A stretch of 64,000 nt of DNA from Candidatus Moraniibacteriota bacterium. GTDB taxonomy: Bacteria > Patescibacteriota > Minisyncoccia > Moranbacterales > GCA-2747515. Positions 5,930-52,875 of this stretch are shown piece by piece. Positions within the stretch are counted from its first letter, which is position 1, and the number at the start of each line of letters is the position of its first letter. Both the position numbers and the translations under genes were made by a program. The DNA is taken from assembly GCA_947311515.1 (NCBI GenBank), contig CAMZLB010000031.1, positions 922 to 64,921 on the forward strand, read 5' to 3'. The notes beneath the pieces were generated by a model that had not been told where the DNA came from, made no database searches, and saw nothing but the letters and a program-made list of their open reading frames with translations.

Positions 5930-6619
5930 TTATAAATGTTCTTTACTAATAATATTCCAAAGAATTGTATCTAAGTGTAATTCTGGGACATTTAATTTAA
6001 ATGAAATAGTTTTGTAAAAATCTTTAATATTTACTTTAGAATTTTTATTAAATTTTTTATATATTTTTATAAGTCTACTATCTATCGGAATCCCTAAAGA
6101 AGTTGGAAAAATTTCATTATAATTAAAAACATTTCTAGCGGAATAAGAAAACATTTTAACAGCAAAAACAATAGTTTTTGCATCTTTTTTTTGTTTCATT
6201 ACTTTTGATAGATCCAATGCAAAAATATCCATATTTTTATAGTAAAATTCGAATGCTTTATTATTTAACATAGAATAATTATCTATAAATTTATCTATTC
6301 TTTTAATTTTAATATTTACTAATCTTTTATTATTTTTAGAATTAGTTAAAAAAATAATCAAAACCTCTTTTACTTGCTGTAATGTATTCACATCCTTATC
6401 CTTTGTGTACTTATAAAATTCTTCCCAATAATCCTCACCATTTCCAGATAATTGATAACAAATAAGTGCATTTAAAATTACTAACTGAAAATATATTTTA
6501 TTTTTGAAGTTTTTTTCTTCGTATAATTTATTTACAGCTATAAATTGTCTATCAGATTTTTCAATTTTTAATATTTCGTTTAAAGAGTATTCTTTGAGAA
6601 TTTTATATAATTGTTCCAT
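5930..6619 (-). CDS. N-glycosylase/DNA lyase, AGOG family (8-oxoG)
   Basis: D.QF, NALICYQLSG.GEDYWEEF, KTIVFAVKMF, IPIDSRL and LHLDTILW motifs. Confidence 0.85.
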   Translation of the reverse strand: MEQLYKILKEYSLNEILKIEKSDRQFIAVNKLYEEKNFKNKIYFQLVILNALICYQLSGNGEDYWEEFYKYTKDKDVNTLQQVKEVLIIFLTNSKNNKRLVNIKIKRIDKFIDNYSMLNNKAFEFYYKNMDIFALDLSKVMKQKKDAKTIVFAVKMFSYSARNVFNYNEIFPTSLGIPIDSRLIKIYKKFNKNSKVNIKDFYKTISFKLNVPELHLDTILWNIISKEHL

Positions 6620-6694: not shown

Positions 6695-8395
6695 ATGAAA
6701 TCAATAAGGCAAGTTTTACTTATTATCTTTGTTATAATTTTTCTACCCTATTATTCTTATGCACAAGAACGAATAATAAAATTTGATGTTGATATAACAA
6801 TGAATCCTAATTCAAATATAGATATAACAGAAACGATAAAGTACGACTTTTCTATACAAAAAAAACATGGAATATACAGAACTATTCCTGTTAAATACAA
6901 AACTGACTTAGGACTAAGAAGAAACCTAAAAATAAAAAATATTTCCGTAGTTGATGAAATGGGTAACTCCTATAATTTTAAAAAAATTAATGATGGTAAT
7001 AACATTAAAATACGTATAGGTGACGCCGATAAAACAATAACAGGAACTCATACTTATGAAATATCTTATACTATACTCGGTGCTATCAATTACTTTGACA
7101 ATCATGATGAGCTTTACTGGAACATTACTGGAAATAATTGGGATCTTCCAATTGATTCTGTGAGTGCAATGATTCATTCTTCCGGAATTGAAAAAATTGA
7201 ATGTTATAAAGGGACTGAAAATAGCAAGGAAACTTGTAATAAAAAGTTTTTTAATGAAACTTATGCAGATTTTAAAGATTTAGATTTTTCTCCTAATGAG
7301 GGAATGACAATTGTAGTAGGTATATCCAAAGGAATCATACAAGAAATGACTACTATTGAAAAAATATTGCAGTTTTTACTTAATAATTCACTCGAACTTC
7401 TATTTCCTATTGTTACAATTATTGCTCTATTTACTCACTGGTGGAAATTTGGACGAGACTTTAAATCTGACAAATCTATAGTTCCTACATGGGAAATTCC
7501 AAATAATTTACGACCTGGTGAACTTGGTATAATAATTGATGAAACTTTTGACTCAGAAGATTTTTCTTCCATTGTAATTGACTTAGCTGTGCGTGGCTAT
7601 ATCACTATAAAACAAATAAATACTAGTGTTTTATTTTTAAAATCATCCGACTATGAATTAACTTTATTAAAAAATAATTCTGATATATATTCAGATAATT
7701 CACTAGAACAATATGAGCGAGACTTCTTAGTAGCATTTTTTGGTAGTCAAAAAAAAGTCTTAATTTCGAGTAAAAAACAGAAATTTAGCAAAACATATCA
7801 AAAGTTAACATCACAAGTTTATGAAAAAATTAGTGGAAATTACTTCACAAAGAATCCTAAAAAAGTTGCTTTAAAGTATGGGTTTTATGGTATAATTTTT
7901 ATAGTTTTTATAAGTATAATTGGTAGTATATTCAATAATTTAATCCTGATAATAACTGGCTGGCTTGGAGGAACTTTTATAATCATAGGATATGGAAAAC
8001 TGATGATAAGAAGAACCCACAAGGGAACTGAAACAAGAGATCAAATAGAAGGACTTAGGATGTATCTCAAAACTGCCGAAAAAAGACAATTAGAATTCTT
8101 AAATGCCCCAGAAAAAAATGCAAAGCATTTTGAAGAAATGTTACCATATGCAGTAGCACTAGGCGTTACAAAAGAATGGGGAGAACAATTTAATGATTTA
8201 ATACAAAAAGAACCTAAATGGTTGAATAATGGCGCTAACGATTTTAATGCATCAACATTTGGCTCTGCTATGTATAATTTTACTAAATCAAGCTCTAGTT
8301 CCTTAAGTTCTTCCAAGGCTTCTAGTAGCGGAAGTGGCTTCTCTGGCGGTAGTTCAGGTGGAGGTTTTGGTGGTGGAGGTGGTGGTAGCTGGTAA
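6695..8395 (+). CDS. DUF2207 membrane protein
   Basis: Signal peptide, ITETI.YDF, DELYWNITG..W, DLAVRGY, LPYAVALG and a C-terminal GGGFGGGGGGSW. Confidence 0.92.
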   Translation: MKSIRQVLLIIFVIIFLPYYSYAQERIIKFDVDITMNPNSNIDITETIKYDFSIQKKHGIYRTIPVKYKTDLGLRRNLKIKNISVVDEMGNSYNFKKINDGNNIKIRIGDADKTITGTHTYEISYTILGAINYFDNHDELYWNITGNNWDLPIDSVSAMIHSSGIEKIECYKGTENSKETCNKKFFNETYADFKDLDFSPNEGMTIVVGISKGIIQEMTTIEKILQFLLNNSLELLFPIVTIIALFTHWWKFGRDFKSDKSIVPTWEIPNNLRPGELGIIIDETFDSEDFSSIVIDLAVRGYITIKQINTSVLFLKSSDYELTLLKNNSDIYSDNSLEQYERDFLVAFFGSQKKVLISSKKQKFSKTYQKLTSQVYEKISGNYFTKNPKKVALKYGFYGIIFIVFISIIGSIFNNLILIITGWLGGTFIIIGYGKLMIRRTHKGTETRDQIEGLRMYLKTAEKRQLEFLNAPEKNAKHFEEMLPYAVALGVTKEWGEQFNDLIQKEPKWLNNGANDFNASTFGSAMYNFTKSSSSSLSSSKASSSGSGFSGGSSGGGFGGGGGGSW

Positions 8396-8836
8396 TTATA
8401 ACTATTATTTTATAACATTACTACTATCAATTCATAACAATTTAGTTGTTAAATTTATTTAAAAGATTTTTAATGTTACTACTTAAAAAACATCATTTTT
8501 AACTTTATTATTAATAGAGTGCGGATAATGCTATGAAGATAAAATTATATTTTAAAAAATCACTCTAACAAGTTTTCAGAAAAAAACTTTTACAAAATTA
8601 ACTTTGAAAGAAACCAAGGATTCGCTATGGAAGTAAGACTTTCAACAAAAGGATTGAATATACTAGAAACATATATAAAAGTGTTTGTAATAAATAAAAA
8701 AAGTTATAAAAAAAGAAAAACATTACAAATCAACATTCTGCTAAATTTAAAATATAAAAAAAGTAAAATACAATCAATAAAAACACCTATACTGCAGGTG
8801 GCTATAATTTAATAGTTTGTGTAACTTATACTTTCG

Positions 8837-9145
8837 TTAATGTGGTAACATATCAATATTTCCTACATATATCGTAAACATACAACCCCCAAATAAAAGC
8901 AAAGGGATTCCTATGCTTCCTATCAAGAATCCAATTAGTATATATTTTGTATCTGCTCTATTATAGATAATTATAATCAAAAAAGGTATAGCTAACACAA
9001 TCAATATAGGAAGAAATAAAAATGATATCCAAAGTGGTATTGAAATTAGTATTCCTAATATTAGGTATTTACGTTTTTTGTACCTAAGATTTAAATCATT
9101 TGATTTATTATCTATATTTTTTCTATCTATCTCTTTATTTTTCAT
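8837..9145 (-). CDS. Small multi-TM protein with a C-terminal lipobox-like motif (LLLFGG-C)
   Basis: 102 aa, hydrophobic; its only Cys closes the last TM segment; last gene of the radical SAM operon. Confidence 0.7.
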   Translation of the reverse strand: MKNKEIDRKNIDNKSNDLNLRYKKRKYLILGILISIPLWISFLFLPILIVLAIPFLIIIIYNRADTKYILIGFLIGSIGIPLLLFGGCMFTIYVGNIDMLPH

Positions 9146-9164
9146 ACTTTTATTATAACATAAC

Positions 9165-9941
9165 TCAAGCTAAAAAACACTTTGCGATTCTTTTTTTTAT
9201 AAAAACAAAATATATAATTATACAAAAAGACAATAGTTGAAATAAGGTTAAATTAAAAAATATTCTTGGCTCAACTCTAATAAACTCAATAAAAAATCTA
9301 TAAGAAAAATAATATATCATGAACATATCAAATAATTCACCATCTTTTGAATTATTTCTCAGCTTTATATTAATAACAACAAACATTAATAATAAAAATA
9401 CTATTTCATAAATTTGTGTTGGATGTCTCGATACACCATCACCAAAATCAACTCCCCACGGCAATTTTGTTTGCACACCGTAACAACACCCCCTCAAATA
9501 ACATCCTACTCTACCTATACCTATGCCAGCAATTATTCCTGGTACAATATTATTACCCAATCTATATTTTATTCCAATTTTATTTTTAATATAAAAAACT
9601 GCCAAAGTTCCGCCAATTAAACCACCAACTATAGTACGTCCCGAAATAATTATCCCTATATTTCCTTGAAAATTATTAATAATTTCTGGAAAATAATAAA
9701 TCCAAATAGGAATCTTTGCACCAACTATACCACCCAAAATACCAAAAAGAACTATTTCAAATAAATATTCATGTTTATATTTATCTTTATTACGAGTGTA
9801 AAAAAAAGTTATTATTATTCCTAATATTATTCCAAGAGAAACAAAAAAAGCATATGATTGTACAGTATAACTTCCTATGTGAAAAAGTTCCGGTCTAATT
9901 CCCCACCCTTCAATGTGTTCGTGATTATGTAAATCAATCAT
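9165..9941 (-). CDS. Prolipoprotein diacylglyceryl transferase (Lgt) family protein
   Basis: GGLIGG, IGRVGC..RGCCYG, LPWGV.F, RHPTQIYE and RFFIEFIR motifs. Confidence 0.9.
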   Translation of the reverse strand: MIDLHNHEHIEGWGIRPELFHIGSYTVQSYAFFVSLGIILGIIITFFYTRNKDKYKHEYLFEIVLFGILGGIVGAKIPIWIYYFPEIINNFQGNIGIIISGRTIVGGLIGGTLAVFYIKNKIGIKYRLGNNIVPGIIAGIGIGRVGCYLRGCCYGVQTKLPWGVDFGDGVSRHPTQIYEIVFLLLMFVVINIKLRNNSKDGELFDMFMIYYFSYRFFIEFIRVEPRIFFNLTLFQLLSFCIIIYFVFIKKRIAKCFLA

Positions 9942-10531
9942 TTTTTATTAATTTTAATTAAATTAGGAAAAAACATACCAACTTCTTTTGTGTATTGATT
10001 ATAATCTTCAAAATTAACTTTTAAAAGTTTTTCTTCTTGTTTAGCTCTATAAAACATAAAAGGAATAAAAACTATAGTTGTTAATATAAATACCAAATAA
10101 TTTGAATATATCATACTAGAAGCATAAAACATCCATATAATTGAAGCGTATAAGGGATGCCTAACAATTTTATATGGACCTGTTGTTACTAAATTATGAT
10201 TTTTATATATTTTTATTTGATTTGCCCAATTTTTACCAAGATAATGTCTACCCCAAATATTAAACCACGTTCCAAAAACCATAAGTATCAATCCTATGAC
10301 TACCTGATATATTGTAGTATATTCAAAAGATCCTATTTTAAAACGTAAAAATAAATAAATCAAAATAAAAAATATAGTCATACTACCTGTTTCCACTATA
10401 CTACTTTTTTCTTTTTTGACTTTATTTTTATATTGAGAATAATCCATAAAATTAAATAGTATAGCCAAAAAAATAACAAAAATACAAAAACCAACGATAA
10501 AATTAATGATTATAACACTTTGTATTATCAT
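9938..10531 (-). CDS. Isoprenylcysteine carboxyl methyltransferase (ICMT/PEMT) family protein
   Basis: LGKNW, H.LVTTGPYKIVRHPLY and RAKQEEKLL..F..Y..Y motifs; overlaps the Lgt gene start by 4 bp. Confidence 0.9.
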   Translation of the reverse strand: MIIQSVIIINFIVGFCIFVIFLAILFNFMDYSQYKNKVKKEKSSIVETGSMTIFFILIYLFLRFKIGSFEYTTIYQVVIGLILMVFGTWFNIWGRHYLGKNWANQIKIYKNHNLVTTGPYKIVRHPLYASIIWMFYASSMIYSNYLVFILTTIVFIPFMFYRAKQEEKLLKVNFEDYNQYTKEVGMFFPNLIKINKK

Positions 10532-10535
10532 ATAA

Positions 10536-11918
10536 TTATAGTTTATCTCTATAAAACATATTATAAGTAGAAAATGGCATCTTTTTTAAATCTGGTGTGA
10601 TTATATGAACACAATCTTTTTTTACAGATTTAATATCAAAATTATAAACATCCACAAATGAAGTTACTGTAATTCTAAAAAAATTGTCATTTACATAATC
10701 GACTCTTTTTTGCTTTGATTGTAGTAATATCTTTGGATCAATGATAGATGCCATCTTTTTCATTGAATTCATGCATCCACCAGAACCCTTACAGCTAAAA
10801 ATTGGTTTAATTAAGTCCTTTGCTATATCCTCCATTGTAAATGTAAGTGTATTTTTTATGTTTGGTAAATAAGTTTCTATTTCTATATCATCCATAACAG
10901 ATTTCCATTTTCCTTCTTTAATTCTTTTAAAAAAAGAAATTGCAACCCTATCAATATCACAAGGCAATGGTATAAAATTATCAGTCTTTATCATTTTATT
11001 TGTTTGTTTTTCTATATCATTTAAAATACCTGTCAATGTTGAACGTTTCGTTATATTTTTTCTAGGCATTCTACCAAAAAAAGCAACTGGTTGAAAATTT
11101 ATACCACGAATCATTTTCTGATTCATTCCAAATTTTACTATCTCACCAACTTCATTATCATTAATACCATTTTCTATAGTAGCAACTAATGTTATAGGTA
11201 TATTGTATTTTGCTAAATTTTCAATAGCCTTATTTTTTATTTTCAACAAATCTCGTCCTCTAATTTTTTTTAAAACTTCCGCACTAAAACTATCAAACTG
11301 TAAATATATTTCAAAACCATTACTAAAGATATTAGATATTTTTTTTACAAATTCAATATCCTCTGCAAGTCTAATTCCATTTGTATTTAACATTACATAT
11401 TTAAATCCTTTTTTAGAAGCTAACTTTAGTATCTCTACTATTTGAGGATGAGTAGTTGGCTCTCCACCAGAAATTTGTAATATTTCAGCATTTCCATATT
11501 CAGAATCTATATAAAAATCCATCATTTCTTCTATTTTTTTTAAATCCAAAAAATCTCCTTCATTTGAATTAGCATAACACAAAGGACATCCTAAATCACA
11601 ATTATTGGTAACCTCAATTAAACCTATACATGTATGTTGTTCATGATCGGGACACAGCCCACAGTCAAATGGACATCCGTTTTTTATTTTTGTTTGCGTT
11701 TTACATTTTGTTCCTGGCTTATCATATTTTTTTCTATTTAAGTAATATTGTCCATCTTTTTCCAAAAGTTCTTTTTTTATACCATGCTTTAAACAATTTT
11801 TTAAAATAAAAACAGAACCATCTTCTAAAATAATTTTGGCATTTATTCGTTCTAAACACTTTTCACAAATACTAATCGTAGCTTCTATAAATAAATATTC
11901 CTTTTCATTCATAAACAT
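10536..11918 (-). CDS. Radical SAM protein, Tes/GDGT-MAS (MJ0619)-like family
   Basis: CEKC...CLKH, CPFDCGLCPDH, rSAM motif CDLGCPLCYA, SGGEPT.HP, NTNG, YLQFD, FQP and C.H...PD....PF..YN. Confidence 0.88.
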   Translation of the reverse strand: MFMNEKEYLFIEATISICEKCLERINAKIILEDGSVFILKNCLKHGIKKELLEKDGQYYLNRKKYDKPGTKCKTQTKIKNGCPFDCGLCPDHEQHTCIGLIEVTNNCDLGCPLCYANSNEGDFLDLKKIEEMMDFYIDSEYGNAEILQISGGEPTTHPQIVEILKLASKKGFKYVMLNTNGIRLAEDIEFVKKISNIFSNGFEIYLQFDSFSAEVLKKIRGRDLLKIKNKAIENLAKYNIPITLVATIENGINDNEVGEIVKFGMNQKMIRGINFQPVAFFGRMPRKNITKRSTLTGILNDIEKQTNKMIKTDNFIPLPCDIDRVAISFFKRIKEGKWKSVMDDIEIETYLPNIKNTLTFTMEDIAKDLIKPIFSCKGSGGCMNSMKKMASIIDPKILLQSKQKRVDYVNDNFFRITVTSFVDVYNFDIKSVKKDCVHIITPDLKKMPFSTYNMFYRDKL

Positions 11919-19312: not shown

Positions 19313-20380
19313 TCAATTATGCAAATGTTTTTCTGTAAATTTAAAACTTTCTTTTAAGTTTGAGAAATCTTTATTTATTTTAGATTTATATTCTATGATA
19401 TCCTCACCCATAAAGACCATCCTTGGCTTAGTTTTTCTATTTTTTATACTTATAATCTCAAATTTTCCAAATGCATAATTAATCACAAAATACCCAAATT
19501 CTGATTTAACAACACCCTTTATTCTGTAAAAATTTTTCTTAGGATACTCTGAAAGAATTGTCTCAAGTTTATCTTTTGTGTAATTTTCTTTTGGTAAAAT
19601 TTCTATTAAATCCACTTCCATTTCTTGATGATAAAAATCGGTAACAATTTCACTACTATTAAACACTTTTGTATCCAGTCCAAATACAAGACTAGGATTC
19701 ACCTTTCCTCTATCTGTGAAAATTTTAGGTGTATCTAAGTTTATTTCATACACGTCATCCAGATTATCTTCTAAAGTTTCTTCATCTAAATCTTCATGTT
19801 TATTTATAAGTATTAAATCAGTATACCTTACCTGAAGTTTAAGTGTAAAACTCTTATCTAAATATCCAGAAAAATTCTCTGCATCTATAACAGTTATTAT
19901 TCCATCAATTTTTAGTCTATCATCCTTATTTATTTCAAAAACTACTGGAGCAGGTGTAGATGAACCAGAAGTCTCTATAATTATCCTATCAGGCTTACTA
20001 GCTATCAACTCATCAAGTGCATCACTTAAAGCACTCAACATGACATGACAAATACAGCCTTGAAGCATTTCCTTTACTAGGGTTGTATTTTCCAATTTTG
20101 CAAGTTCTGTGTCCACTCCAGTACTTCCTATTTCATTTTTTAGCCATGCAATTTTATAATCAGAACCCATACTTTTCATGAGTTTTGTGATGACTGTAGT
20201 TTTTCCAGAACCTAAGTATCCTGTAAATATAGTAACTGGAATTATATCTATTTCATTCTTTTTTTTAGTCTCTTTTTTCTGTTTTTTTTGTTTTTTAAAA
20301 GTTTTTTTATCATTGTCCCATATTTCTAATTTTAACTCTTCTAATTCTTCCGATGCCAAAAATGGTGATACATATTTCAT
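19313..20380 (-). CDS. CobW/COG0523 G3E GTPase, metallochaperone-like
   Basis: TGYLGSGKTT, NEIG, GCICH, IIETSG, LINK and YRIKG motifs. Confidence 0.9.
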   Translation of the reverse strand: MKYVSPFLASEELEELKLEIWDNDKKTFKKQKKQKKETKKKNEIDIIPVTIFTGYLGSGKTTVITKLMKSMGSDYKIAWLKNEIGSTGVDTELAKLENTTLVKEMLQGCICHVMLSALSDALDELIASKPDRIIIETSGSSTPAPVVFEINKDDRLKIDGIITVIDAENFSGYLDKSFTLKLQVRYTDLILINKHEDLDEETLEDNLDDVYEINLDTPKIFTDRGKVNPSLVFGLDTKVFNSSEIVTDFYHQEMEVDLIEILPKENYTKDKLETILSEYPKKNFYRIKGVVKSEFGYFVINYAFGKFEIISIKNRKTKPRMVFMGEDIIEYKSKINKDFSNLKESFKFTEKHLHN

Positions 20381-46390: not shown

Positions 46391-47277
46391 TTAATAAATT
46401 TTAATAAGCTTTGCTCGATAATATAGACGTTTTAATGAAGTATATTTTGGTGTGCAAGTATATAAAGTTAGTATTGGTTCATCAGTTTTTTTAAGAATTT
46501 CTTCAACTCCTTTATCATTTGGTTTAACCACTCCACTTTCAACAATTTCATACTCAAAAACATGCTGATCATAATGTACTTTTACTTTGTCACTTTTTTT
46601 AATTTGTCTAAATCAATAAAAGCTGTTCTAGCCGGATTATTTCCAAATTTCCAGCGATGTCCTGATATTACTAAATTTCCTTTTTCGCCCAGCATAGCCA
46701 TAGTTTTATGTCGGCCCAGACCTCTGTCCAAATCACTATCTTGAATTCCATTAACAATTGGAGCTTTTATTTTTACTTTCTCTGTATTCACTTCCAACCA
46801 AAATGTCCCCAAATCAGCTTCAGTAAACTCTTTTTTCTTTTCTTTTTTTTGATTATCACTTCCCTTATCATTTTTAACTTCCACTACTACCTCCTGGCTA
46901 TCAACATCTTTTCTCTCATCTACAGCAACATTTCTTTCTCCAAAAAACCACATCCAAAATAAAATATAGCCAACAACAAAAACTAGTAATATAATCCATT
47001 TTTTGTGTTTGAAAGTAATCACTTTAAGCCATTTTAAAATAGCCTTTAGACGACTAATAATCTTATCACTGAATTTATTTTTCTGCCAAATTTTCTTAAT
47101 TTTATCAATCCAAATTTTGCACCAAGGTTTAATTTTTTGTATCAACAAAACATATTTTTTCCGAGAAAAATTATAAATTTTAACCAATCTTTTTTTAATA
47201 CTAGTAATATTCTTACTTACAAATTTCCACACCATTTGTATATATTTTTTTACTATATTAAAAATTTTATTAGACAT
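46391..47277 (-). pseudogene. Sortase with a 1-bp frameshift
   Basis: GNLVISGHR lies in ORF 46582..47277. The catalytic LTLYTCTP...KR lies in the -1 frame after the A7 run at 46594-46600 and ends at TAA 46391. Confidence 0.88.
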
Positions 47278-47330
47278 TGACTTTGGATACTTAGTTGATA
47301 TGGATAATACTAAAAACTAGAACATTCTTA

Positions 47331-47554
47331 AAAAATTAAGTTAAGCGTGGAAAGGTCCAATCTTTGCAAAGCCACACATACTTCGTAGTTTTAGTGAAAT
47401 AGGAACAGATAAATATTAAGACTAGAACTTTGCACGCGAATATAAGCATATAATCTAGCAAAGATTCGACCTCCACATTCACCAAATTCCTGTAAGGATT
47501 AGTTTCTACAAATGTCAAACTTTTCCTCATAAACAACCTATTTTTGCGTGCGAA
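47331..47554. ncRNA. Candidate structured element between adhesin and sortase
   Basis: 47347-47367 pairs with 47458-47476; 47429-47440 is complementary to 47543-47554. Confidence 0.35.
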
Positions 47555-47635
47555 CTGTTGATACTTTTTTTTATTCTATCATAAAAATTTTCTAATTTAA
47601 ATAAATTTTATCATAGAACTATAGCTACACATATT

Positions 47636-50600
47636 CTAAAATATTTCAGAGCTTTTAACAATCTCCCAAATAGTTTTCCACCAATTCTCTCCAGTTTTAG
47701 CTAGTTTCTCTTCAGTATTGTTATAACCAAAGTCTGCTTTAGTATAATCCTGTCCTTCTCTTAAAGTCAATTTAATTTTATTGTTTAAATTACCACCTTT
47801 TTCATAGGTTTCTATAAAATGTCTCACATCATGTTTTTTTACAATAACTTTAAACTTACCTTTTGGAAGAATATCAAATTTATATTTACCATACTTATCG
47901 GTCTTTGTTTTCCAAATGTAATCATCATCAGTGCCAAATTTATTGTCTGGCCCAACCCAAATCAATTTAACATGAATATCTTCTAATCCTTTCTCATCTT
48001 TATCTTGTTTACCATCTCCGTCTTTGTCCAACCAAATGTAATTTCCGATGGAACTATCTCTCTCAGCTTTTTCTGTTCTATTCCATACTGTCTGATCTTC
48101 CCCGTTGATAGTATCATTATCCGTTACTACTGGTTCTTGTCCTCCAGTAATATCATCACTAAAATCTCCATCACCATTAGCATCCCAATGAGCACTAGCT
48201 TGATTTTCTACAGTTTTCATTTCAGCAGGAACAGTTGTCCTGTAAACCAAAACAACTTCATTTAAAGAATCATCTTCATTAGTCCCTCTTGGATCTGGAG
48301 CGATATCTCCTTCCCACCTCACCCTATTTTCCGCCACATCGTAGGTACAAACTGAAGTTACAGAAGCACCTCTTGCCTCACAAGTAAAACTATTTGCTAC
48401 GTAGGTCGTTCCAGCTGGAACATCATCGAGAATTTGTGTAGCAATAGCCGTCATATTTCCGTCGTTAATCCAAACCATTGTCCATTCTATTTCATTCTCT
48501 CCAGTTTCTCCAACAGTTTTTATAGCATGGGGTGGATCAAAAACATTAGCGTAAAGAGCATAAAATCCAGCATCTATAGATGTATTATTTTCTCCAGAAT
48601 GCAAATGTACAACATCCGTTGTTAATGTATTAATATTGATATCACTATCTTTTGTTGTGTCTCCACCTTGATTTTTATCAGTTGGATTATGATCTGCTGG
48701 TGGTGTAAATTGCACTTGATAATCGCCTGGCAAAAGATTTTCAAAAAGATAATCTCCATTTGAGCCAGTAGTTATAGTATAGGGTGTCCCAGGATTAGCT
48801 GGATCGTCAACTGGATTTCCTGCTCCATCCAATAATTCTACTAAAATACCTTCTAAGCCTGGTTCCCAATCTTGTTGAATACCATCCCTTTGATCATCTC
48901 GCCAAACTTTATCGCCAAGAGAAACCTGCTGCGATATACCTGCATCCAAAGAAGTTACTATGTCTCCAGAAGCCAATGTTACAACATCACTTCGCTTAGT
49001 CACAACATCTATATCAGAATCTATAGTGTCATCGCCTCCGACATTCTGTATTGAAACGCTATATCCATTTGGCAAATTTAATTCTATTTGATATTGCCCT
49101 GGCATTAAATGGATAAACTCATATTCACCATTGACTCCAGTGACTACCGTGTAAGGAGTGCCTGGATTATTTGGATTGTCCACTGGATTACCATCTCCGT
49201 CTAAAAGTTTTACTACTACTCCCTCTGCACCATTTTCTCCTGCATCCTGCAAACCATTAAGATTATCATCTAGCCAAATTTTATCTCCGATAGTAACTGT
49301 TTCATACATCCCCGTATCAATCGTATTATTATCCTCATTGACTTCCAAGCTAATAGTATCCGTCGTACCTACCTGTCCATTAATATTTGTTACATCTGAA
49401 TCAACAGCATCATCACCTCCTTGATTAGCTGGAGAATAAGAATGATTTGCTGAGGCAGTAAACCTTACACGATAATCTCCATGATTTAAACCTTCAAATA
49501 AATACCATCCATTAACATCTGTTGTTACTACATATGGTTGTCCATTTACTGGATTGTTCACAGGATTTCCTGCTCCATCTAATAATTCAACTTGCACTCC
49601 TTCCAATCCATTCTCGCCAGCATCCTGAATACCGTTAGCATTACTATCTGTCCATACTCTATTACCAATAGAACTGCCCACAATGCTAACCGCTTCTGAA
49701 TTAGACAATACGGGTAGAGTAACTCCTGTAGCCGAAGCACCTGCTGAATTAGAATAAATATCTCCGGACAAATTATTTTCTATTTTCATTTTCAATTGCA
49801 ATTGACACGTAGCGTCTGCCTCCATAGATGGACCTACTGCTCTCACAGCTGTTACATCACTTCGATTCATTCCAGATGGAGGATCAGTCATAGTTCCTTC
49901 TTGCCAAATTGTTTGTGCGCCACCAATAACGTTAGCTAGACCAACACTTGGCGCAATATTAATGTTAGTTGGCATCTCCGTTGTGTAATAGTATTTAACA
50001 CCCCCATTTACAGAAATATCACATAAAGCTGGTGATTCTGGATGGGCGACTAAAGACATAGAAGTAAATTCTTCAGTACCATGATAATTAGTTCCAGGAT
50101 TTCGTTCCACGGTAATATTATTAAAATGTATCGCCCCTGTATTTCCATCTCCTGTAAAAGGTAGAATATCAATCACATCTAAATCTGTTAAATCTCCTGG
50201 TTTTCCATTTCTAAAATCAACTAAATAATCAATGTCCTGACTAGCTACCGTACGTTCTCTTTGAGTAGCGCCCACTGTTGATTTAATAATATTTAAACTA
50301 GCTGGCACTGAGATATTTATTCCTACTTCTGATTGCGCTTGACTTACCACAGTAAAATCAGTTGAAACTTCTATAGTTGTAACATTATTAGCAATACCCA
50401 CCGGTGCTGAAGCTTTTACTTTTGCTTCATAAACAATATCTGAAAAATTACCGTTAGCACCTACTACCCCAAAATCCCATAACAAAACTGTATTTACGTT
50501 ATCATCACAGGTAAGTGAAACATCAACATCGTTACAAGTACCAATAACCGGCTCATTGGCTCCTGTTGTACTTCCATCAATATATTCAAATCCTTCCGGT

Positions 50601-52875
50601 AAAACATCTTTAATGACCAAATGCCCACTTTCAGCAAGACCAGCATCATTTGTATAAGTATAAGCTAAAGTATAAGAGACTGTATCACTAGGCACAGCTG
50701 TGGAGGTTGAAGCTGTCTTATTTATACGCGCTTTTGCCCCTGTAAATGTCACTCTATCTCCTCTTGTACCAATTATGGCATCTGGATATTGATTAGGAAT
50801 ATAATTTGTCCCAATAAAAGCATTGTTATTTATTTTATAAGCAAAACAATTAACAATTTCATCTCCATACTGTAGTGGTTGCCCGGTTAATAAATCATTT
50901 GTGCGCACCTTATGATTTAGCCACATAAATAAATAAGCTCCTGGCGGATGAACTACCCCATTGCGAAGTTTAATTTTTATTTTTGTCACCGAACCAATCC
51001 CTTGAGAGTCTGCTCTAGCCTCATCAGCTGTTGCAAACCACCCCCCTATTCCATTACATTCATTTTCAATTTCAGTTTTATATGAAACTGTTTGATCTCC
51101 ACCTCGTGAAGGAAGCCAAGAATTATCTACATAACGAGCCGAATATTCAAATTCATAAGGACCGGGGCTGGCACTATCGCTATAGTCACCGGAATCATGA
51201 CCTATATAATATTTTACTGGATCTGCATTGTTGTTATGAGCATAACCATTATAGCTTGTCTGTATACCAGTATAAAATTGATTGTCTTCAATATCTTGAA
51301 TTTCTAATCGATAAGCATCAATAACATCGCACATCTCCTCTGTAAAATCAGTTCCTCCTGTATTAGTAGAACGTATATTTGTAGAAAATTCATAACCACT
51401 ATTAACCATTCCTTCTCCCGTTCGAACACCCATAGCCCCTCCTGGCCAACTCCAAACACTCGAAGTGTCACCACGATAATATTTACCGAAAGATCCTCGT
51501 AAACCATACAAGGTTAGAGAATAGTCATTATCATTTTCTGATTCATGATTAGCTCCAAAATTTGAATTACCCGTTGGTGTAGTTGGGTCAAAACTTCTTA
51601 ATTTATTTTTTGTTAGCAATACTCCATCATCACTGTTTCCCGTAACACCATAATTTCCTGCTTCAACATCCGAAAGAGGTACAAAAACATTTACCGAACC
51701 AATAGCCGCTATTGCCCTACTGGCTGGCAAATCTCCTCCTGTATACATTTTTGTTGGATAATTATTTAAAGTAGCATCCACATGCGAAACTGTTACACCA
51801 ACATCAGTTCCGCTCACACTACAATTTACCTTTTAAACTCCCTGATTTTGTGGTATATGCTGGTCTGTGTTAGCTTCATGAATTGAACCTGGTCCACTAA
51901 AAGTTATAGGGTTAGCGCTACCAACATAGCCATCTTGCACGTCATAACGACCATTCATATCGCATCTAACCAACTGCGCATTAGGAGAAATTTCATCCAA
52001 CTGATCTGTAAAAGTAAAGGTGACATCATTTCCCATGGATTCATTCCCCAATAAAGAATAAGTGTTATCCGTTGTACCAACTACCTCATCAGTTTTAATA
52101 TAAAAAATATAATTTAATATATAACCATCAACTTCAGGAGTATTAGGATCCCCATCATCATCATAAGTCATTCCCGTATAAGATCTATACAAACCTTTTT
52201 GCAAATTCCATCGGGGTGACGCTGTAACTGTCAAAGAATATCCATCCGTATCATCAGAAACGGTTGTAGCATTTTGCCCAGAAACTTCAAAAGAAATATC
52301 TCCAGGAGTTGCTCCATTTGGAGTACCCCCCAACACTCTTGCTGTAAATAATAAATCCTCAGCATAAGTAGCTGTATTAGTAAAATTATTTCTAACACAA
52401 GTGAGGGTTAATTTGTCCTGAGAAATACTTGATTGATTTGAATCACAAGAACCTGGTAAATTTGTCCATTCATATTCCCCCGTGGCTGGCAAGGTTCCAA
52501 CTATAGCAACCTCTTCCTCTGGACCATTTTGCACACCATTCCAACTCCAACCAGCTGATACCTCAAATACATCTTCGTCCTCACTATCAAATCACCACTA
52601 TAGGTATCATCACTGGGATCACTAGTGGTTCCATTGTTAGAATATCCTGGGTCATTAGCAAAATCACAACCGTCCGTTGGGTCAGCTGGACAAATATTAA
52701 CATCATTAACTAAATCGCCAACATTATTTAAAGGTCCTTTTATCCCGCCAGTCTGAGTGTATTTAGTTGTTATATTTAAACTAGCTGCGAAAGCATTATC
52801 TAGTGAGTACACAAAAACCCCACTAATGATAATAGTCATTATCAACAACTTACCTAAAATATTTTTCATTTTCAT
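47636..52875 (-). pseudogene. Giant (~1745 aa) surface adhesin with DUF11/isopeptide-like and four SdrD-B-like domains and a C-terminal LAKTG; split into three ORFs
   Basis: ORF 52501..52875 carries the signal peptide; 1-bp deletion near 52574; in-frame TAA at 51833-51835; four IG..(V/I)W.D...G.Q...E.G repeats. Confidence 0.85.

Follow-up and report, generated by a model that had tools for sequence, protein, structure and literature searches.

A conserved cassette of a Tes-like radical SAM enzyme, an Lgt paralogue and small membrane proteins: a possible private S-lipidation system in a Moraniibacteriota genome

What does a radical S-adenosylmethionine (SAM) enzyme that resembles the archaeal tetraether synthase Tes do beside a paralogue of the lipoprotein enzyme Lgt, a membrane methyltransferase and a small membrane protein, in a bacterium with a reduced genome? 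The question is raised by a 64,000-nt stretch of Candidatus Moraniibacteriota DNA (the window; positions 922 to 64,921 of contig CAMZLB010000031.1, assembly GCA_947311515.1), in which four such genes form a cassette. An original prediction, made from the letters of the window, had proposed a pathway that lipidates a cysteine, cross-links the lipid tails and methylates the product. We found that the cassette is a dedicated, conserved module of known enzyme families, apparently undescribed. The reading that we favor builds on the genes, their linkage, fusions, folds, residue changes and insertion site as observed, and takes the cassette as a private S-lipidation system that would use a phospholipid modified by the radical SAM enzyme (rSAM). 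All of its chemistry is inferred, and we give it a probability of approximately 0.45.

Cassette layout and conservation

All four genes lie on the minus strand. The rSAM gene (10536-11918, 460 aa) passes the Pfam cut-offs for Radical_SAM and Zn_ribbon_HMPTM, the gene for an integral membrane methyltransferase (9938-10531, 197 aa) passes those for ICMT and PEMT, and the gene for the Lgt paralogue (9165-9941, 258 aa) passes that for LGT. The last gene (8837-9145, 102 aa) encodes a small membrane protein with no family match, which is the predicted lipid acceptor. Intergenic gaps were 4, −4 and 19 bp. Upstream, 60 bp separate the cassette from the end of uvrC, and a converging DUF2207 gene lies at 8395; the open reading frame (ORF) calls therefore bear out the co-oriented genes, spacing and flanks first described.

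Conservation was evaluated in 84 related loci, namely four genome loci and, out of 580 metagenome matches in the 7 of 64 parts scanned, the 80 best; 41 of the 84 had full flanks (at least 2 kb upstream and at least 3 kb downstream). An Lgt-like gene was found within 4.5 kb of rSAM at 38 of the 41 full-flank loci and at 65 of 84 overall, the neighbor-gene profiles having been built from the same 84 loci, in which kin are not independent. A chance grouping of the genes was rejected on this linkage. In 60 loci, pairwise identities of rSAM and Lgt co-varied, with a Spearman coefficient of 0.80 that none of 500 permutations reached (kin again not independent). Fusions of Lgt, as the N-terminal part, with the zinc ribbon and Radical_SAM made up 6 of 12 longer Lgt relatives. 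In one genome of the same genus (G920), the cassette Lgt is fused in frame to a small-protein paralogue without Cys (374 aa, L152:3978-5102), where a lost stop is possible; rSAM, the methyltransferase and two small proteins of G920 lie on another contig, and no canonical Lgt was found in this genome (92% complete).

In three of five same-family genomes examined (G920, G842 and G913), uvrC lies directly before the DUF2207 gene, which was identified by eye in these genomes. Among 151 genomes of the order, two carried rSAM, as did two among 401 of the phylum; the host genome (G000) is included in both counts. Because uvrC and DUF2207 are adjacent in relatives and rSAM is sparse in the order and phylum, the four genes are an inserted, patchily distributed block, one copy of a mobile cassette that was horizontally acquired. 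With a GC content of 0.22-0.27, the four genes are close to uvrC (0.27), so composition gives no sign of a recent arrival.

The closest relative, L005 (75% identity in rSAM), carries a housekeeping Lgt that groups with that of the host; L005 is titled Micavibrio, a label that may be wrong, its genome measuring about 1.1 Mb. The cassette was also found in the cultured, harmless hosts Chondrinema and Persicobacter, which makes it directly testable. Among 401 genomes of the Woesearchaeota-containing phylum of genome G404 (the archaeal sample), nine had Tes-like matches: five were the cassette, with the methyltransferase in G404, G492 and G756 and without it in G629 and G755, and four were lower-scoring Tes-type matches, one of them from the unpublished genome G737, which was counted only. 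The G404 contig is titled Woesearchaeota, and the exosome and MCM genes next to its cassette are presumably archaeal. The setting in a candidate phyla radiation (CPR) cell, to which significance had been attached, is thus not specific, the cassette being rare in the host phylum and present in many bacteria and some DPANN archaea.

The radical SAM enzyme

The rSAM motifs listed originally are all present (C18/C21/C42/H45, C82/C86/C89/H92, C107/C111/C114, YLQFD, C320, C376, C382 and C436). The structural model (pLDDT 87) matched GDGT-MAS best, with a TM-score of 0.83; against 7TOM, Z was 49.3 and the root mean square deviation 2.8 Å over 426 residues, and the next best structure reached a Z of 20.5. 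rSAM shares with Tes/GDGT-MAS (MJ0619; 7TOL, 7TOM) the whole four-domain fold, including the rubredoxin CxxC..CxxH, the N-terminal auxiliary C3H and the radical SAM cluster CxxxCxxC ligands, and these first three metal sites were intact in 76-78 of 78 relatives. Thus, the claim of a Tes-like layout stands for structure, but not for family membership. rSAM scored 315 bits with the Tes model NF045702 (cut-off 450), a cut-off passed by both Tes-type proteins of the DPANN phylum that were scanned, out of three in the tree (713 and 540 bits). In a quick tree of 58 proteins with long branches, it fell in a clade of 23 (support 100), apart from the Tes-type rows. Relative to Tes, two conserved cysteines as well as Met439 and Tyr459 are replaced (the latter by Thr419 and Ile439), and C97, C320 and a Cys pair are gained. 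Met439 and Tyr459 are reported to be fully conserved in archaeal Tes yet dispensable in vitro (PMC9433317), so their replacement bears on membership more than on activity. The Lgt paralogue and small proteins are tied to cassette rSAM; neither turned up beside the three Tes-type genes examined.

The best-scoring NCBIfam model was that of the radical SAM (seleno)protein TrsS (NF045646; 355 bits, cut-off 490), a cut-off also failed by all nine non-Tes relatives tested. TrsS is said to sit with a molybdopterin aldehyde oxidoreductase, and cassette rSAM differs from it in having no in-frame stop. Selenocysteine was rejected, the two interrupted rSAM genes checked stopping at TAA and TAG, not TGA. 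Invariant in the family were C97, C320 and a minimum of two cysteines within residues 356-400 (the latter in 78/78 members and in 53/53 close relatives). With the Tes cluster ligands assigned by alignment, C320 and C376/C382 could replace the lost C-terminal [4Fe-4S] ligands. The C-terminal part of rSAM matched unnamed clusters only in the ESM Atlas.

A lipid substrate is inferred because the fold is that of Tes, and a lipid is likely in view of the structural model. Tes made in Escherichia coli is reported to bind bacterial phospholipids, and to hold the first lipid radical, in the form of a C-S intermediate, at its C-terminal cluster site (PMC9433317). Lgt-less Tes-like rSAM genes at three loci (L125, L092 and L061) adjoin class I methyltransferases, an ArsC-like phosphatase-family gene, CcdA/thioredoxin or a flavin disulfide reductase-like gene; they may form a further subfamily with thiol or metalloid chemistry.

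The Lgt paralogue and the host lipoprotein pathway

The Lgt paralogue scored 141 bits with PF01790, and its sole significant fold match was E. coli Lgt (5AZB; TM-score 0.69). With the canonical model TIGR00544 it scored 74 bits, below the cut-off of 118.9. In E. coli numbering, His103 is replaced by Val and both Asn146 and Glu151 by Cys; Tyr26, Arg143, Gly154, Tyr235, Arg239, Glu243 and Arg246 are retained. Arg143, Gly154, Tyr235 and Arg239 were invariant in cassette Lgts, with the lipid-binding arginines kept in 35 of 35. Host-clade Lgts had Cys at 146 and mostly Cys at 151. In the clade without the methyltransferase, 17 of 18 Lgts had His at position 26, a possible relocated catalytic base. 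In a quick tree with a small outgroup, 29 cassette Lgts formed one clade against 8 other Lgts (support 98). The cassette Lgt of Mycobacterium branderi has, by eye, the Y26H/N146C pattern described for MSMEG_5408, the second Lgt of M. smegmatis, which is presumed to have low activity or another lipid preference (PMC13251419; bioRxiv 2025.01.07.631728). In E. coli Lgt, His103 is reported as essential and the active site as lying at the outer face (PMC4728403).

A canonical Lgt (His103/Asn146/Glu151) and LspA are encoded elsewhere in G000, together with approximately seven plausible ordinary lipoproteins (eight pattern matches); hence the cassette Lgt is spare. The separate housekeeping lgt whose presence had been put as a check is therefore real and distinct from the cassette copy, and the possibility that the latter is the sole housekeeping gene is ruled out. 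Four other cassette carriers (L149, L150, L151 and L154) also had a canonical-looking Lgt. LspA was found in G000, and of nine other cassette genomes tested, eight had it. However, LspA (PF01252) was matched in 338 of the 401 genomes of the archaeal sample (336 above cut-off; six unpublished genomes counted) and is thus too common for its co-occurrence to inform on cleavage. These LspA matches and the canonical-looking Lgts conflict with the stated absence of Lgt from archaea (PMC13251419; PMC12462473). Such sequences suggest bacterial-type lipoprotein maturation in DPANN cells of the phylum of G404, of which no description was found by a term search of PMC8204110 or by a literature search that was not exhaustive.

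PlsY and CDP-alcohol phosphatidyltransferase were not detected in G000, in agreement with the lack of de novo lipid synthesis that had been assumed. An 886-aa fusion of acyltransferase, ACP-like and AMP-binding (ligase) domains (L155:984-3644, contig C26 of G000) is likely a lipid-salvage enzyme.

The small membrane proteins

The last hydrophobic helix of the small protein ends in P-L-L-L-F-G-G-C88, followed by a 14-residue tail. One to several small proteins were found in or after the cassette. With DUF4395 excluded, the cassette was flanked by 93 small hydrophobic ORFs, of which 63 showed the arrangement of helix, Cys and short tail; in the remainder of these loci, 6 of 111 did. The Cys motif was present in small ORFs at 45 of 64 evaluable loci, with the consensus F-G/S-x-C and a median tail of 8 residues (range 3-22); the motif filter demanded a small residue or Ile/Thr at −2. 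The lipobox attributed to the protein was not upheld: L-L-F-G-G-C88 is not canonical, its Cys lies 14 residues from the C-terminus, and the canonical pattern [LVI][ASTVI][GAS]C was matched by 0 of 71 family motifs. The −1 residue was small in 28 of 71 motifs across the family and in 10 of 14 of the host clade (G/A/S; host protein included).

Lys or Arg preceded the helix in 70 of 71 motifs, and three loci (L006, L033 and L118) have the motif instead at the end of an N-terminal, signal-like helix. Because of the basic residues before the helix (positive-inside rule), Cys is predicted at the outer face in either arrangement. The arrangement thus resembles a lipoprotein signal peptide that follows a separate code, by analogy with the E. 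coli Lgt (5AZB)/LspA pathway. The likenesses to that pathway are the Lgt fold, Arg143/Arg239, the signature glycines and a Cys that ends a basic-plus-hydrophobic helix. The differences are the missing His103, Cys at Asn146/Glu151, and a F-G/S-x-C motif that is usually C-terminal. Together, motif enrichment and helix layout support the earlier view of the small protein as the module's own target. A motif-profile scan of G000 found no further copy but was insensitive, having missed the host's own protein too. In the ESM Atlas, the protein matched unnamed clusters at <0.9.

The methyltransferase and DUF4395

The methyltransferase belongs to a cassette-specific subfamily with SxVETGTM and GKNWANQI signatures. 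It resembles the ICMT family (Methanosarcina acetivorans ICMT, MddA and LmtA) in its Pfam matches and C-terminal motifs, which are kept in an alignment with structure 4A2N (E = 4e-13). However, it passes no NCBIfam cut-off (ICMT model NF040696, 80 bits vs. 160; thiol methyltransferase MddA, 34 bits). ICMT-family SAM sites face the cytoplasm. The gene was present at 13 of 41 full-flank loci and absent from 28; all 23 members of the host rSAM clade had it, and one more such locus (L041) lies outside. It is therefore an accessory of one well-supported clade. In the archaeal sample, its profile matched 60 genomes and scored 291-305 bits at three cassette loci, which are in the profile, and at most 100 bits elsewhere; no free-standing member was found in these 401 genomes.

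DUF4395 occurred at 12 of the 13 methyltransferase-bearing full-flank loci, as a separate gene in 11 and as an ICMT-DUF4395 fusion in one. Since it is missing here, the host cassette may be a reduced form. DUF4395 partners and the host-clade Lgt carry Cys pairs. A putative link of DUF4395 to mycobacterial sulfurtransferase operons could not be confirmed. ArsP_1 permease genes lie inside or directly after the cassette at two loci (L020:7452-8312 and L036:3066-3962).

A proposed mechanism and its alternatives

Under private S-lipidation, rSAM would start at the cytoplasmic side by modifying a phospholipid tail; the diacylglyceryl group of the modified lipid would next be moved by the Lgt paralogue to Cys88 at the outer face. 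The product would likely stay uncleaved, given the often bulky −1 residue. At the cytoplasmic face, the methyltransferase would cap the lipid, on a thiol or an anionic group, rather than the outward Cys, and the lipid would in this host be scavenged, not made. The order of modification and then transfer is taken from topology, with Cys predicted to face out and the sites of rSAM and SAM to face in, a topology that the original order (lipidate, cross-link, methylate Cys) fits poorly. The dedicated lipidation pathway first proposed is therefore retained in part: the conserved module, the spare Lgt and the module's own target argue for it; Tes membership, the order and a general role of the methyltransferase were not supported. 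Within the favored model, tail-to-tail C-C coupling to a macrocyclic or membrane-spanning anchor would be the likeliest rSAM reaction, at somewhat below even odds, with insertion of sulfur at the tail and subsequent S-methylation the next likeliest. Given the failed Tes-family tests and the rebuilt cluster site, we hold the cross-linking of tails as a hypothesis only.

Several observations weigh against private S-lipidation. The C-terminal cluster site of rSAM is remodelled: only C436 of the three Tes-conserved cysteines is kept, all 53 close relatives have Ser where Tes has the PFC cysteine, and the HxxC cysteine is lost; residues 371-382, including the extra pair C376/C382, were modelled at pLDDT <50. 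Other Tes-like rSAMs adjoin unrelated genes (methyltransferases and an ArsC-like phosphatase-family gene), so the substrate does not follow from the fold. The catalytic His103 is absent from 35 of 35 cassette Lgts, in which a hydrophobic residue or Thr stands instead, and the host clade keeps Tyr26 (17/17), with no catalytic base evident. Three full-flank loci had no Lgt (L035, which is truncated, L075 and L083), and both the host cassette and its closest relative are without a DUF4395 gene. Finally, Cys-less small-protein paralogues exist, among them the Lgt-fused paralogue of G920, and a subunit role fits them as well as a substrate role.

The alternative that survives best, although we consider it unlikely, is that the product of rSAM is, like that of Tes, a free lipid, membrane-spanning or macrocyclic, and that an inactive Lgt-like subunit and a small-protein subunit hold or move it. 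The loss of His103, the Lgt-rSAM fusions, the Cys-less paralogue fused to Lgt and the presumed low activity of the M. smegmatis second Lgt (PMC13251419) are as this would predict; a subunit role leaves unexplained why, in two topologies, a signal-like helix should carry a conserved Cys at its outer end, and the several divergent small proteins per locus keep little besides the motif. Somewhat less probable still is a sulfur or metalloid system, in which the rSAM cysteines would put a thiol or bound metalloid (e.g., arsenic) on the tail, to be methylated and then stored or displayed on the small protein. Tes is reported to form a thiolated lipid intermediate (PMC9433317), every family member has two or more cysteines in residues 356-400 of rSAM, DUF4395 partners and the host-clade Lgt carry Cys pairs, ArsP_1 permeases lie in or beside two cassettes, and distant relatives adjoin ArsC-like and arsenite-methyltransferase-like genes. 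However, most loci had no arsenic or sulfur genes beside them (by eye, uncounted), most had no methyltransferase, and the latter scored higher with ICMT than with MddA, below both cut-offs.

A lipo-RiPP (a peptide made by the ribosome and modified after translation), in which LspA would cut before Cys88 and free a 15-residue lipopeptide with rSAM-altered lipid, is improbable. The concept is illustrated by DAG-RiPPs (PMC13056109), the several divergent small proteins of a locus look like a set of precursors, LspA is encoded in nearly all cassette genomes tested, and the −1 residue is small here and in most of the host clade. Yet a small −1 residue is the minority family-wide, no canonical lipobox was found, tails vary freely with no conserved core, and the presence of LspA is, as noted, uninformative. 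DAG-RiPPs are like the proposed product in being small, ribosomal and anchored by a diacylglyceryl-type group via Cys; they differ in their reported use of the host Lgt/LspA/Lnt, an N-terminal signal peptide and a peptide-modifying MNIO enzyme (PMC13056109). Pfam and NCBIfam profile scans detected no MNIO enzyme among the four cassette genes, and a term search of PMC13056109 returned neither radical SAM nor tetraether. A CAAX-like route, with lipidation of Cys88, trimming of the tail and methylation of the new Cys carboxyl by the ICMT-like enzyme, one option under the original prediction, is unlikely and much the weakest reading: the alignment with 4A2N and its conserved motifs favor it, but the tail is 14 residues long, Cys is predicted outside and SAM sites are cytoplasmic, the methyltransferase is missing from most full-flank loci, and no protease gene was seen in the cassette loci read, no genome-wide protease search having been made.

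If the lipidation model holds, the lipid anchor would be of a new type, Lgt would have a new chemistry that dispenses with His103, and spare lgt copies would gain a function. The model's boldest version is a second, self-sufficient lipoprotein system of bacteria and DPANN archaea in which rSAM would weld phospholipid tails to a macrocyclic or membrane-spanning lipid and the His-less Lgt would fix this product to the C-terminal Cys of a microprotein, riveting both leaflets; we regard this version as doubtful. If it were true, lipid-auxotrophic CPR and DPANN cells would rework host lipids with the cassette, and many "bacterial Tes homologues" counted as markers of branched glycerol dialkyl glycerol tetraethers would belong to the cassette instead. 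A literature search found no publication on the gene combination; the TrsS paper and the Tes-paper supplements, where mentions are possible, were outside its coverage. Bacterial and DPANN Tes homologues have been used to infer the makers of membrane-spanning lipids (PMC8941075, PMC11868695), and Zeng et al. described DPANN homologues as unexpected and possibly host-derived. The cassette accounts for some of the DPANN homologues, and with five of nine Tes-like matches in the archaeal sample being cassettes, gene context matters for such counts.

Other features of the locus and window

A weak terminator-like hairpin (8784-8800, minus strand) lies 37 bp past the last cassette gene. The hairpin search returned two sites, both of them this palindrome, vs. 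0.9 ± 1.1 in shuffled sequences. Searches for repeats and promoters at the locus gave nothing beyond chance level, and the viral contigs searched gave one weak, unrelated match. Two short metatranscriptome contigs (158 and 225 nt) fall on the rSAM gene with no strand or level, and raw-read runs matched the cassette partially and at low identity; neither is evidence either way. The host genome measures 1.2 Mb at 96% completeness, and relatives are listed at 0.5-1.0 Mb, sizes in keeping with the CPR-like cell first suggested. Elsewhere in the window, an archaeal-type N-glycosylase/DNA lyase (AGOG, PF09171) is encoded at 5930-6619 in this bacterium, a sortase-domain gene adjoins that of a 1393-aa SdrD-B repeat surface protein (46582-51817), and a CobW/HypB-type GTPase is encoded at 19313-20380 in what is a reduced genome.

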